IMG/VR virus record: IMGVR_UViG_2061766007_000586
Coordinates: 224,001 to 288,000 of that record
Origin: a virus
Taxonomy: Duplodnaviria; Caudoviricetes
DNA: 64,000 nucleotides
Direction: 5' to 3' (one strand)
Positions 3,591-7,906 of the stretch are shown one piece after another; positions within the stretch are counted from its first letter, which is position 1, and each line of letters begins with the position of its first letter. The notes under the pieces are model-generated. The model searched no databases. It was not told where the DNA came from and saw only the letters and a program-made list of their open reading frames with translations. Both the position numbers and the translations under genes were made by a program.

Positions 3591-3627
3591 AAAGTGATTT
3601 CCTTATTTCAAAAACGGTTATAGAATT

Positions 3628-4206
3628 TTATTTTTTAATTTGAACCCAACTAAAATCTAGATATGTTTTAATTGGTGGTTTTTTGAAATATTCGTCAACA
3701 GCTTTTTTAACACCAAAGACACGTTCAAAACATTTGGCGTTTATGTGTGGATCATTTGGATCAACGTAATCATGTCCTGAGATAATTCCACCAGGTTTTA
3801 CTTTAGGAACATAATTGTTAAGATCACGCTTTGCTGCTTCGTATCTATGATCTCCATCGATATAAATAAAATCAATAGAGTTATCTTCAAATCTGTCTAC
3901 AACTTCTTCAGAGTGTGCTTTTACTTTTTTAATAATGGGGTTCATAAAGTGCTTATAATCAAAAAAGATTTCAGCATATACGATACTGCTATAAGCACAG
4001 CAATCTTTTGGATCATAACCCATTTGCCAAGGATCAATGCAATAAAGTGTTTTAAAAGCGCCACTCTTAACAAACATGCTTGTACTCTCACCAGCATAAG
4101 AACCTATTTCTATACCAATGAGATCTTTCTTTCCTTTTAGATATTCATCTACAAAATCTTGTAGATGACTCATACCTGCTTCACGTTGTGGATATATTAA
4201 ATCCAT
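3628..4206 (-). CDS. class I SAM-dependent methyltransferase (Methyltransf_24-like)
   Basis: EIGSYAGES, IDPW, IYIDGDH, KPGGIISGHDY motifs. Confidence 0.88.
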   Translation of the reverse strand: MDLIYPQREAGMSHLQDFVDEYLKGKKDLIGIEIGSYAGESTSMFVKSGAFKTLYCIDPWQMGYDPKDCCAYSSIVYAEIFFDYKHFMNPIIKKVKAHSEEVVDRFEDNSIDFIYIDGDHRYEAAKRDLNNYVPKVKPGGIISGHDYVDPNDPHINAKCFERVFGVKKAVDEYFKKPPIKTYLDFSWVQIKK

Positions 4207-4226
4207 ATTACTTCTCCTTATTAAAA

Positions 4227-4359
4227 GACCAAAGGTGTGTTTCTACACCAAAAGTTTTCAGGCATGGACTACCATGCTTACTCGATTCGCACAAATCTAC
4301 TCGAGTCATCCAACTACTCCTTAGCTGATGGCTACTTCTAAGCCAACAGTCCTTCAGTC
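4227..4359 (-). ncRNA. mimic of 23S rRNA H43-H44 (L11-binding GTPase-associated centre)
   Basis: TGTTGGCTTAGAAGTAGCCATCA...GTGTAGAAACACAC matches 23S UGUUGGCUUAGAAGCAGCCAUCA...GCGUAAUAGCUCAC; closing stem GACTGAAGG/CCTTTGGTC. Confidence 0.8.
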
Positions 4360-4364
4360 AACAA

Positions 4365-4456
4365 TGGCGGTGAAGGTGGGATTCGAACCCACGGACAGTC
4401 TCTCAACCGTCGCTGCTTTTCAAGAACAGAGCCATAGACCTCTCGACCACTTCACC
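4365..4456 (-). tRNA. tRNA-Ser(TGA)
   Basis: long variable arm, loop CTTGAAA, G73, CCA. Confidence 0.96.
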
Positions 4457-4460
4457 AAAA

Positions 4461-4934
4461 TTATTTATATTTTACATGATGACCATGTATAGATTTTCGT
4501 TCACCACGTGCTACTCGTTCAACACATACAGGAATTAATCCGTAATAACTTGCAAAGTCAGTAGCACTTTCAAATTCTTTTCCTGTATCAAGATCAATAA
4601 CAGGTTTAGAAAAATGATTTTCCTTTCCGTGTTTTCCGTAAAAAGGATTTTTCTCACCTTTTCGAGTTTCTTTTAATTCTTTATTTGATTTTTTAGTATG
4701 ACAACTATGGCAGAGTAATTGACATTTTTGCAATTCTGTTTCAGTTTCTTGTTTTGATCTATTTAGCAGATCACTAATATTAAATCTTTTTTCTACAGAA
4801 TTGATGTGATCAAATTCTAAATGTTCTGTTGATCCGCATTTGACACATTTTCCACCAAGTTTTGAAAGTAATTCATTTCTTCGTTTGTGATAATATTTTC
4901 TACTATAGTTTCGATGATAATCACGATTCATCAT
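4461..4934 (-). CDS. HNH homing endonuclease with NUMOD-like C-terminal DNA-binding motifs
   Basis: CxxC...LEFDH...CQLLCHSCH; GEKNPFYGKH; DTGKEFESA; own TATATTAC promoter at 4972-4979. Confidence 0.88.
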   Translation of the reverse strand: MMNRDYHRNYSRKYYHKRRNELLSKLGGKCVKCGSTEHLEFDHINSVEKRFNISDLLNRSKQETETELQKCQLLCHSCHTKKSNKELKETRKGEKNPFYGKHGKENHFSKPVIDLDTGKEFESATDFASYYGLIPVCVERVARGERKSIHGHHVKYK

Positions 4935-5105: not shown

Positions 5106-5615
5106 TCATGATTTATTTAACTTAATGATTTTTTCTATGATGCTGGTGGTACTATAACCTTCTTTAAAATCAAGAATTTTAATTTCACACTTAACGGTGT
5201 CCAGTGCGTTCTTTTCTTCTTGATTTAATCCAGCTATATAATCTCCACCTTTTACATAAAAATCTGGATGAAGTTGAAGAATTTCATTTTCACATGTAGG
5301 GGAATCAAAAATAACAACGTGATACACACATGTGAGACTTGCAAGAGCATAAGCTCTATCTTGCTCATTATTGATAGGTCGGTGATCACCTTTTAAAGCT
5401 TTAACCGATTTATCACTATTGAGTAAGACAAATAATTTTCCGAACTTAGCAGCATTGTTGAGAAATTCTAGATGTCCACGATGGAGAATGTCAAAACATC
5501 CATTTGTTAGAACAACTGGAATATTGTCAAAATGAAGACATTCTCGTTCAATGATTGCTCCATCAAGATCAGTAATTGCACCTTTAATGTAATGATCTAG
5601 AATATTATCTGACAT
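5106..5615 (-). CDS. RfaE/HldE domain II-like heptose-1-phosphate adenylyltransferase (cytidylyltransferase family)
   Basis: TNGCFDILHRGH, LNSDKSVKALKG..RPI, KGGDY, GYSTTSII; likely start 5615 because 5642 lies inside the upstream terminator. Confidence 0.88.
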   Translation of the reverse strand: MSDNILDHYIKGAITDLDGAIIERECLHFDNIPVVLTNGCFDILHRGHLEFLNNAAKFGKLFVLLNSDKSVKALKGDHRPINNEQDRAYALASLTCVYHVVIFDSPTCENEILQLHPDFYVKGGDYIAGLNQEEKNALDTVKCEIKILDFKEGYSTTSIIEKIIKLNKS

Positions 5616-5636
5616 AATAGACCTTGAAATAAAAGA

Positions 5637-5668
5637 ATACACTGCATGGGTTTTACCATGCAGTGTAT
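5637..5668 (-). terminator. intrinsic terminator after DUF2828 gene
   Basis: 13-bp stem ATACACTGCATGG/CCATGCAGTGTAT followed by T-rich tail. Confidence 0.75.
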
Positions 5669-5678
5669 AGAATAACGG

Positions 5679-7160
5679 TTAACCAACCGTGATCTTTGCA
5701 TAACGTTCTGCGTTCAGAACGTTAAGCATCATCTCGATTGGCGTATCGGTGATGGCTCTCATCACATTCTTGAAGGATGAAACGGCTTGGCCCGAGCAGC
5801 AGATAGCACCCTTCCTGTCTTTATCGACGTGGAAGGTATCGTGCCTTGACTCTACGTTCCAGAATACGATACCAGGAATCTGGTATCCTTCTTCTTCGAA
5901 ACGTTTCTTGAGAGAATCATAGAACACCCAGTCAGTGTAGCGAGTACCTTCATCGATTTCCATATCGGAAATGATGATGATAGCCTTCGGCATATCTTCT
6001 GGAGCAACATGATGCTCTGTTGCGATCTTGAGAATCTTCTCAAACGCAGCTTCCAGATTTGTCGAACCACCCCAATCATTAGTATTGATACTTTGGAGTT
6101 TCTGAGCGAGCGTCTGACCCTTCAGGTGATGAAGAGTACAGTTCGAAGAGAACGACATCCACAGGTCCTTATAAGGACCTACGTTACGTTCGGCAAAGTA
6201 AATTGCCAAACCAACTGCAGATGCCATAGGACGACCAGCCATACTTCCCGAAGTATCGGCGATTACGATTGCAGACGAATTGCCTACAACGTAGTTCGGA
6301 AGGGACTTCCACTGACCTTCGACGATAGGATCTTCTTCGAAAGTGACCCCATTCCAATCCCATCTTCTTCCTATGTACTTTTCCACAAGATTGTACGGAT
6401 ACAGAGTACCAGCATTGATCTTGGCAGTACCGGCTGTGAGATTCTTGAGATAATCGAAGAAACGATCTCCATCGTGTTTCGGAAATGCCATCTTGTAGCG
6501 AAGCATGGCATGACTCGGAACAGCTTCGTAGTTGATTTCGTTCCAAGTACCATTCGACATGTGTGTTTCCACAATGTTGATGTACTTCCTCAAGCCACGA
6601 AGAAGACGCTTGAACATGCGTACTTCCATTCCGAACTTCAGGGCAGTCATGATGCCAAGTTTACGGGTCTCTTTGGAAGATCCGTCTGGAGTTTTAATCC
6701 ACTTGGCAAGAAGACTTACCGGCTTGTTCTGTCCCATGGCTTCAAGATCAGCCACGAACTGCTTCTTCATCGAAACCCACATATCGTCCTCTAAAGGAGT
6801 TCCGATCAGTGTGTATAAGTCGTCATAACGACCATACTCACCAATCAGATCGATATTGGGTCTGATACATTCCGGGTAGTGCTGGGCAGCATACTTCAGA
6901 ATCTGACGGAATGATTTCCTCTCACCGAGGCCTTCTCTTACATCACGACTGTAAAAGAGGCATCTCGTGGCGAGAAGTTTGTCCTCTGCATAGGCGTCAG
7001 AGAACAGACGTTCGATGCGGGTCTGCTCCGTGTTACGAAGAGCACCGCAGACACTGAAAAAGTCCAGAACTTTACTACCTGTCGTGTTAAGACAGGTAGC
7101 TCCATTTTCGGTGCGAGAGTGGGTTGCTTCCTTTGCGAAAGCGTTTGCAAATGTTGTCAT
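5679..7160 (-). CDS. DUF2828-family Ro60/TROVE-like protein with vWA (MIDAS) domain
   Basis: TENGA, RDVREGLGER, LLAKW; MIDAS DTSGSM...GGSTN...ISDME; FWNV; start 7160 with GAAAGGAG SD. Confidence 0.85.
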   Translation of the reverse strand: MTTFANAFAKEATHSRTENGATCLNTTGSKVLDFFSVCGALRNTEQTRIERLFSDAYAEDKLLATRCLFYSRDVREGLGERKSFRQILKYAAQHYPECIRPNIDLIGEYGRYDDLYTLIGTPLEDDMWVSMKKQFVADLEAMGQNKPVSLLAKWIKTPDGSSKETRKLGIMTALKFGMEVRMFKRLLRGLRKYINIVETHMSNGTWNEINYEAVPSHAMLRYKMAFPKHDGDRFFDYLKNLTAGTAKINAGTLYPYNLVEKYIGRRWDWNGVTFEEDPIVEGQWKSLPNYVVGNSSAIVIADTSGSMAGRPMASAVGLAIYFAERNVGPYKDLWMSFSSNCTLHHLKGQTLAQKLQSINTNDWGGSTNLEAAFEKILKIATEHHVAPEDMPKAIIIISDMEIDEGTRYTDWVFYDSLKKRFEEEGYQIPGIVFWNVESRHDTFHVDKDRKGAICCSGQAVSSFKNVMRAITDTPIEMMLNVLNAERYAKITVG

Positions 7161-7174
7161 AATAAAGCTCCTTT

Positions 7175-7235
7175 CATGACACGTTAAATGCATAAATTTG
7201 CAGTTTATGAAATTGGGTTTGCTGTTAGCGTCACA
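7175..7235 (-). ncRNA. CAGCAA-motif hairpin A, abutting the SD of the DUF2828 gene
   Basis: TGTGACGC-TAACAGCAA...GTGTCATG; inner CATAAA-CTGCAAA-TTTATG. Confidence 0.6.
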
Positions 7236-7771: not shown

Positions 7772-7906
7772 TGGTGGAGAGGGTAGGATTTTCACCTACA
7801 CATAGAAGTCCATTGATCTATTTAATTAAAAATAAATTTGCGGCGAGTGTCACACTGCAACATGACACCACATAAATACTTCTTGCTCTAATTGAGCTAC
7901 CTCTCC
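7772..7906 (-). ncRNA. expanded tRNA-like RNA 1 (135 nt, CCA encoded)
   Basis: GGAGAGG/CCTCTCC-A-CCA; GCTC/GAGC D-arm; AGAAGT/ACTTCT stem enclosing ~70 nt; GTAGG-TGAAAAT-CCTAC. Confidence 0.8.

Follow-up and report, generated by a model that had tools for sequence, protein, structure and literature searches.

The GTPase-associated centre of 23S rRNA (Escherichia coli 1051-1108) is a compact domain whose isolated 58-nt form is bound tightly by ribosomal protein uL11, which recognises its fold, and the same domain is bound by thiostrepton. On the ribosome, the exposed loop bases of this centre matter for uL11, thiopeptides and EF-G, and the sarcin-ricin loop provides the second rRNA element of the factor-binding site. 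In the 'ribosome-in-pieces' work of Munishkin and Wool from 1997, isolated oligoribonucleotides mimicking the thiostrepton and sarcin-ricin domains reportedly bound EF-G in vitro. Natural imitations of rRNA sites are also known, since some ribosomal-protein mRNA leaders, such as the L10 leader of rplJL, imitate them and act in cis in the protein's own bacterial operon. Other RNAs (6S RNA, CsrB/RsmZ and the phage RNA anti-CRISPRs) are mimics that sequester proteins. Finally, GOLLD and ROOL are large structured phage-associated RNAs, often located beside tRNA genes and, to our knowledge, without resemblance to rRNA.

The phage RNA described here has the same order of elements as the 23S centre, and both have in common the H43 loop with A1067, U1060, A1088, the 1082/1086 pair, G1087-C1102, the triple 1072/(1092-1099), reportedly limited in both to the same two states, and the H44 loop GUA..A with A1095. 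Unlike the 23S centre, it is free-standing and phage-encoded, being flanked by a tRNA gene and an ORF in the window (the whole stretch of 64,000 nt that was analysed). In addition, a plain closing helix without fixed sequence takes the place of H42, a fourth arm between 1089 and 1090 gives a four-way instead of a three-way junction, A1089 of rRNA is G, and A1090-U1101 is replaced by G.A or A.A. As a consequence of this arm, of G1089 and of the G.A or A.A apposition, the junction core differs from that of rRNA, and the three-way junction with A1090-U1101, embedded below Kt-42, is not found in the phage RNA. The oligoribonucleotides of Munishkin and Wool were likewise isolated imitations of rRNA domains outside the ribosome, but they were synthetic constructs whereas the phage RNA is a natural gene family. 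The ribosomal-protein leaders are, similarly, off-ribosome RNAs imitating the rRNA site of a ribosomal protein; the phage RNA differs from them in lying in tRNA arrays with no ribosomal-protein gene nearby, and a search of the element with the Rfam ribosomal-protein leader families (L10_leader and others) at E up to 10 gave no match. The logic proposed below is that of 6S RNA, CsrB/RsmZ and the RNA anti-CRISPRs, in which an abundant small RNA imitates a ligand and titrates a host protein; in contrast to 6S RNA and CsrB/RsmZ, the phage RNA imitates a folded rRNA domain with tertiary structure, and its target is putative. No match to GOLLD or ROOL was obtained in the window at the gathering score, on the element at E up to 10, or in the loci of 16 relatives at E up to 1. 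The T4 RNAs rnaC and rnaD (species 1 and 2) are likewise small stable RNAs of a phage tRNA cluster, and they lie at the end of the tRNA array (70908-71171 of NC_000866). They were considered as members of the family and rejected, as the family model gave at most 6.8 bits across the T4 region with filters off.

The window comprises bases 224001-288000 of a 318.6-kb IMG/VR phage genome that is rated complete, and DNA runs from cattle gut contain its sequence. The whole RNA is located at 4227-4359 on the minus strand (133 nt, from closing stem to closing stem), where the covariance model of the family, R1, gives 104 bits to a copy that was itself among the seeds of the model. This is the only copy found by the R1 search in the 318.6-kb genome. 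The gene of tRNA-Ser(UGA), at 4365-4456 on the same strand, was identified by ARAGORN and scored 47.9 bits with the Rfam tRNA model; the gene encodes the CCA end, which is separated from the RNA by a 5-nt linker, UUGUU (4360-4364). The initial annotation had placed an imitation of the GTPase-associated centre at this very position, strand and distance from the tRNA, in agreement with the sequence. All the elements that follow are on the minus strand. The 5' strand of the closing stem (4351-4359) is the equivalent of the top of H42 (E. coli 1047-1055) and forms 9 bp with the 3' strand (4227-4235; E. coli 1104-1112), which was assigned by pairing and family covariation. The H43 equivalent (4325-4349; E. 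coli 1057-1081), assigned by alignment to the LSU model, has the loop UUAGAAGUA including A1067 and U1072. It is followed by the junction CUAAG-GAGU (4316-4324), in which CUAAG corresponds to 1082-1086, with a C/G pair in the window copy, and then come G1087, A1088, G and U. Between 1089 and 1090 there is an insert of 63 nt (4253-4315), predicted by folding it alone to form a 4-bp stem (AGUU/AACU) around two hairpins; an insert of some 60 nt with two hairpins had been described beforehand inside the closing stem. A UUU linker (4250-4252), conserved in all of 48 typical relatives, precedes G1090 and the H44 equivalent (4237-4249; 1090-1102), which has the loop GUAGAA and a U1092-A1099 pair. All 24 pairs of model R1 form in this copy. 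The minimum-energy fold (-42.2 kcal/mol, compared with -30.2 for the comparative fold) prefers other pairs at the junction, in a calculation with nearest-neighbour energies, which ignore the tertiary contacts and ions on which the rRNA domain also depends.

The sequence and register of the window RNA match E. coli 23S rRNA 1051-1108. The E. coli sequence given by the initial annotation proved to be correct: it is carried by locus L083, a true rRNA obtained in the first of the scans described below, whose identity with the annotated 23S rRNA was 100% in 5,426 of 5,426 E. coli genomes searched. When E. coli 1055-1089 was compared with the window RNA, differences were found at 7 of 35 positions, five of which belong to covarying sets (1057/1081, 1082/1086, and 1072 with 1092/1099). 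The near-identity claimed for H43 was confirmed, because its equivalent in the window is the E. coli sequence except for the compensated pair 1057/1081 and C1072U. A search with the LSU model, which had been proposed together with the claim, also recognised this region: positions 1098-1143 of the Rfam bacterial model align to 4303-4349 with 16.2 bits and E 0.004 in a search of 271 nt, a score below the gathering score, as is to be expected of a piece of only 47 nt. Natural rRNAs are said to have U/(U-A) as an alternative state of the triple 1072/(1092-1099), following Conn, Gutell and Draper in 1998. In E. coli, C1072 contacts the C1092-G1099 pair, through C1072/C1092 and C1072-G1099 (PMC2952862), and the window has U/(U-A) in place of C1072/(C1092-G1099). 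The change of C-G to U-A noticed in H44 by the initial annotation is thus real, and it is matched by that of C1072 to U, the third member of the triple, on which the annotation had not commented.

IMG/VR was scanned with three patterns, namely the exact H43 sequence, the U1072 form of the H43 loop, and the H44 form of the family. The exact H43 sequence yielded 96 stretches, only two of which were real rRNA; the U1072 form yielded 76, in part family members and for the rest chance or coding matches, and the H44 form at least 120 matches. In all, the three scans gave at least 107 different relatives in full length; they measure about 98 to 407 nt, with a median of about 200, and the window copy is among the ten shortest. 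Their common plan consists of closing stem, H43, YUAAR-GAGU, stem-enclosed insert, UUU-G, H44 and closing stem. The H44 signature of the family is GCACAC or ACACAC, and the core signature as a whole is present in the window copy. The interval between H43 and H44 that holds the insert ranges from about 65 to about 380 nt, and the insert itself from a single hairpin of 25 nt, in the smallest members, to about 350 nt. Model R1, built from 15 short members, matched about 70 relatives end to end with 69-116 bits (69-107 bits for those outside the seeds), and relatives with long inserts were split into two halves.

Unannotated copies are also present in cultured phages, which were reached by BLAST of GenBank phages with a canonical relative as query; the window copy used as query gave no match there. 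In Pseudomonas putida phage pf16 the RNA lies between tRNA-Asn and tRNA-Pro, and it is not mentioned in the paper on that genome. Cronobacter phage GAP32 carries a copy as well, and that of Xanthomonas phage XacN1 is followed by an intrinsic terminator. The BLAST matches to Pectobacterium phage CBB, Serratia phage BF and Yersinia phage fHe-Yen9-04 cover the H43 segment only. When bacterial genomes were scanned with the H44 pattern, 6 of 120 matches were members, in assemblies of Clostridia and Acidimicrobiales; the others were discarded as chance hits of a 15-base pattern in 596 Gb. No Rfam 15 family matches the RNA in the window at the gathering score, and at E up to 10 on the element and up to 1 on the loci of 16 relatives only tRNA, tmRNA and short LSU pieces were found, plus a weak match of the element to the freshwater-2 motif. 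Literature searches did not return any description of such a phage RNA. It is, as far as Rfam 15 and these searches show, a large family that has not been described before.

Base pairs were counted at positions fixed by sequence anchors, so that the counts, made on 48-61 distinct relatives, are independent of the alignment program. Positions 1058/1080 and 1057/1081 were paired in 48 of 48 relatives, with three pair types in the first case and two or three in the second, and 1082/1086 was U-A in 30 and C-G in 17 of 48. In the closing stem, each of the pairs joining 1047-1054 to 1105-1112 showed at least three Watson-Crick types whereas G1055-C1104 was invariant, and both sides have changed in 8 of the 9 pairs across the family. 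Each of pairs 1-3 of the insert stem was formed in 45-47 of the 48 relatives, and all pair types occur among them. The triple 1072/(1092-1099) was C/(C-G) in 48 copies and U/(U-A) in 13, and mixed states were never seen. This joint change indicates that the compensatory change of H44 is part of a covariation of three bases. G1087-C1102 was paired and U1060 present in 48 of 48 relatives, A1088 was found in all copies seen, and 1090/1101 was G.A in 44 and A.A in 4 of 48. In an alignment fitted to the model (116 distinct matches), which leans towards the model and includes as rows some half-matches of long-insert members, 89.3% of the cells pair, compared with 65.7% in shuffles, and the covariation score is 0.493, compared with 0.136 in shuffles (none of 500 reached it) and 0.07-0.14 with slid partners. 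Given that leaning and those half-matches, the anchor-based counts are the firmer evidence.

The loops were examined in copies located by other parts of the RNA. Of 48 copies that were located solely through the closing stem, at least 44 have A1095 and 46 have A1098, and the H44 hexaloop has the form GUANNA, of which GUAGAA in the window is an instance. Among 33 relatives found without constraining H43, A1067 was present in 28 and replaced by G or U in 5, a looser conservation than in ribosomes. Both factor-facing loops are largely kept in the family. Comparative analysis evidenced that selection maintains in this RNA the fold of the GTPase-associated centre, including its tertiary contacts.

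These data also bear on the possibility that a piece of host 23S rRNA was captured and is now decaying, without function. The high identity of H43 to rRNA would be expected in such a case. Against it, the closing stem is unrelated to rRNA, the insert, G1089 and the G.A pair are shared derived features, only two of the 96 exact-H43 matches were true rRNA, and more than 100 relatives show compensatory changes. The initial annotation had preferred selection on structure over decay, and the search for covarying homologs in phage genomes that it had proposed bears this out, with more than 100 distinct relatives and strong covariation in every helix and in the triple. Covariation excludes the decaying fragment, whose probability we consider practically nil. 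Moreover, the derived features are common to the whole family, which therefore has a separate history rather than being a collection of pieces taken recently from host rRNA. The annotation was also right in regarding the RNA as a stand-alone element, as it is a gene of its own inside tRNA arrays. It had correctly recognised a stand-alone RNA selected for this fold, and what it had missed is the role of the insert as the variable fourth helix of the family. Its interpretation is thus supported in part, with uL11 or thiostrepton binding, reduced RelA activity and the decoying of defence factors as its putative side.

Several modules recur in the inserts. Many relatives (for example L002, L006, L066, L129 and L174, the last one being pf16), but not the window copy, have CACCCC-(GNRA-like loop)-GGUAAGG close to the 3' end of the insert; the motifs GUGCGAAAUG and UGAUGUGC form another pair that recurs in the inserts of relatives. 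In L110 and L129 there is a further insertion after the stem that closes the H43 loop and before the YUAAR junction, so a second site of the core tolerates expansion. Three relatives with inserts of about 310 nt (L023, L213 and L270) have, at the same relative place, a hairpin of sarcin-ricin type, AGUAC-GNRA-GGAA, with a covarying stem. These members, 3 of the 107 relatives collected, thus appear to imitate both rRNA elements of the factor-binding site. The window copy lacks this hairpin: in hairpin 1 of its insert, the internal loop GUA/GAA was examined as a possible sarcin-ricin copy and rejected, as it does not have the bulged G. A role of the insert as a stand-in for H97 was also rejected, because the contact of H97 (G2751) goes to C1049 in H42 and not to 1089. 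It could be argued that the GAC-like core is a mere stable scaffold and that the function resides in the variable insert, which is long and ornate in many members and has recurring modules such as the GGUAAGG one. Nevertheless, the insert of the smallest members is only the 25-nt hairpin, and the conserved part is the core, including exposed loop bases which a scaffold does not need, so that we regard this explanation as highly improbable.

The genomic setting was studied in the window and in the relatives. In the window, 10 tRNA genes on the same strand are found within 8.6 kb. In the loci of the relatives, 395 of 396 tRNAs are on the strand of the RNA; for 38 of 61 copies the nearest tRNA is no more than 300 nt away, and in 18 of 61 a same-strand tRNA ends at most 50 nt upstream, mostly at most 4 nt. 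These close tRNA ends suggest that the RNA is released by tRNA-processing enzymes. The 49 RNA-bearing phage records examined are of 95-519 kb. No protein gene recurs beside the RNA, the largest cluster of neighbours being present in 8 of 106 loci; neighbours in relatives include homing endonucleases, a CCA-adding enzyme, TerD, an AAA ATPase and the like, and the RNA is most often followed by a tRNA gene or by some unrelated ORF. In the window, an HNH/NUMOD homing-endonuclease-like ORF (4461-4934, minus strand; Pfam HNH E 1.2e-4) lies upstream of the RNA, between tRNA genes. A scan of this locus for promoters and terminators did not give anything above chance, and the only site that resembled a terminator was the H44 hairpin.

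Downstream of the RNA, and not part of it, there is an ORF for a class I SAM methyltransferase (3628-4206, minus strand; Methyltransf_24, Pfam E 1.7e-20), with its ribosome-binding site 8-9 nt downstream of the closing stem; this ORF is probably co-transcribed with the RNA. This proximity raises the alternative of a cis-acting leader that controls the methyltransferase, like the ribosomal-protein leaders that imitate rRNA. In the same sense, one RNA-library contig spans the RNA and the methyltransferase, and 4204-4277 weakly matches the cis-regulatory freshwater-2 motif, with 22 bits compared with a gathering score of 49.9. However, the neighbours of the relatives given above do not favour it, there is no methyltransferase among the ten largest Pfam-annotated neighbour clusters, the XacN1 copy ends at a terminator, and the ribosome-binding site is outside any conserved pairing. 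Control of a methyltransferase in cis is unlikely as a role of the whole family, and we give the leader very little probability as an explanation of the RNA. An added effect in cis may exist at the window locus, since the RNA is there directly upstream of the ORF.

Concerning expression, contigs of a cattle-gut RNA library cover 3600-4477 almost identically, and a 245-nt contig of a sheep-gut RNA library covers 4187-4370. The only differences of the sheep contig within the RNA are at positions 1096/1097 of the loop, which are variable, and its upstream part runs into a different tRNA. These contigs, which are shallow, carry no information on ends, strand or level and could derive from contaminating DNA, give a slight indication that the RNA is transcribed. 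Genes for uL11, bL12 and RelA/SpoT were looked for in this phage genome and none was found, and uL11 was found in none of the 49 RNA-bearing records; any uL11 partner would therefore be derived from the host. Matches resembling bL12 appeared in only 3-5 of the 49 records. A bL12-like ORF above the Pfam cut-off is present in G012, G045 and G034 (records of L029, L231 and L152, respectively), the first of which is classed as a provirus, so its copy may be the host's.

We propose, with moderate confidence, that the element is a stand-alone non-coding RNA acting in trans as an off-ribosome imitation of the GTPase-associated centre, most likely by capturing host uL11. This interpretation follows from the conserved fold, the retention of the exposed loops, the lack of an encoded partner protein and the sarcin-ricin-like hairpin of one subfamily. 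Against it, the junction core differs from that of rRNA, the extra arm might clash with uL11, A1067 is less strictly conserved than in ribosomes, and the minimum-energy fold of the window copy prefers other pairs at the junction. The RNA would be transcribed with the phage tRNA array and probably cut out by tRNA-processing enzymes. It folds with a plain helix in place of H42, H43, a variable extra arm between 1089 and 1090, and H44, keeping the tertiary contacts of rRNA and both factor-facing loops. Host uL11 would be its most likely first partner, and the resulting RNA-uL11 surface could draw uL11, or the ligands of the site, off ribosomes; candidate ligands are translation GTPases, the complex of RelA with uncharged tRNA, and toxins or thiopeptides aimed at the site. 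The effect would be to blunt a stringent or defence response of the host during infection. The complete sequence of events, in which a replica of the factor centre (in some members with the sarcin-ricin-like hairpin) is freed from tRNA transcripts, recruits host uL11 off the ribosome and, by stripping uL11 or capturing RelA, GTPases or toxins, disarms such a response, is put forward more tentatively.

Two other trans-acting roles were considered. In the first one, the RNA would not be a sponge for uL11 but a decoy for whatever attacks the ribosomal site (a defence toxin, the toxin of a rival or a thiopeptide that recognises the centre, with or without uL11) and, being abundant, would soak it up so that ribosomes are spared, which would parallel the phage tRNAs that replace those cut by defence nucleases. 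We know of no bacterial defence toxin aimed at H43/H44, which weakens this explanation. Nonetheless, both exposed loops, with their thiopeptide and factor contacts, are conserved, and the sarcin-ricin-like hairpin of one subfamily copies a classic target of toxins. In addition, the RNA lies in tRNA arrays interspersed with homing endonucleases, and phage arrays of this type have been described as anti-defence loci (PMC13096335). The present data fit the decoy and the capture of uL11 alike, and the decoy is kept as a minor possibility.

In the second role, the RNA together with host uL11 would be an off-ribosome docking platform that binds EF-G, IF2, EF-Tu or RelA/tRNA and alters their availability or activity. 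The binding of EF-G to isolated thiostrepton- and sarcin-ricin-domain oligoribonucleotides, as reported in the 1997 work of Munishkin and Wool, speaks for docking. The sarcin-ricin-like hairpin of one subfamily would also suit such a platform, although so few of the relatives, and not the window copy, have it. In general, factors bind isolated rRNA pieces weakly in comparison with ribosomes. Finally, A1067 stacks on the elbow of the RelA-bound tRNA (PMC5829649), and yet it varies in the 5 of 33 relatives indicated above. On balance, docking is considered improbable.

If the proposed trans-acting imitation is true, phages would manipulate translation through an RNA replica of a functional centre of the ribosome, for which we found no description, and RNAs of this kind, derived by copying part of an rRNA, would form a new class of viral anti-host RNAs. 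A phage could thereby, at the level of RNA, control the stringent response or evade defences directed at ribosomes, and the family may partly explain why phage tRNA islands hold more than tRNAs. The presence of the family in cultured phages of Pseudomonas, Cronobacter, Serratia, Yersinia, Erwinia, Xanthomonas and Aeromonas makes the proposal directly testable. Furthermore, the family is a natural experiment on a classic RNA fold, with more than 100 relatives that keep the tertiary contacts and yet add a fourth helix.

Two further observations were made in the tRNA region of the window. At 7775-7906 on the minus strand, the Rfam tRNA model matches 132 nt with 42 bits where ARAGORN made no call; this stretch has an acceptor stem, D arm, T arm and CCA, with about 65-70 extra nt between the halves of the anticodon stem, and it looks like a tRNA gene with an intron-like insertion. 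Finally, a 504-aa ORF with DUF2828, DUF7788 and von Willebrand A domains is located at 5679-7193 (minus strand), inside the tRNA region, and is adjoined by a cytidylyltransferase-like ORF at 5106-5642.
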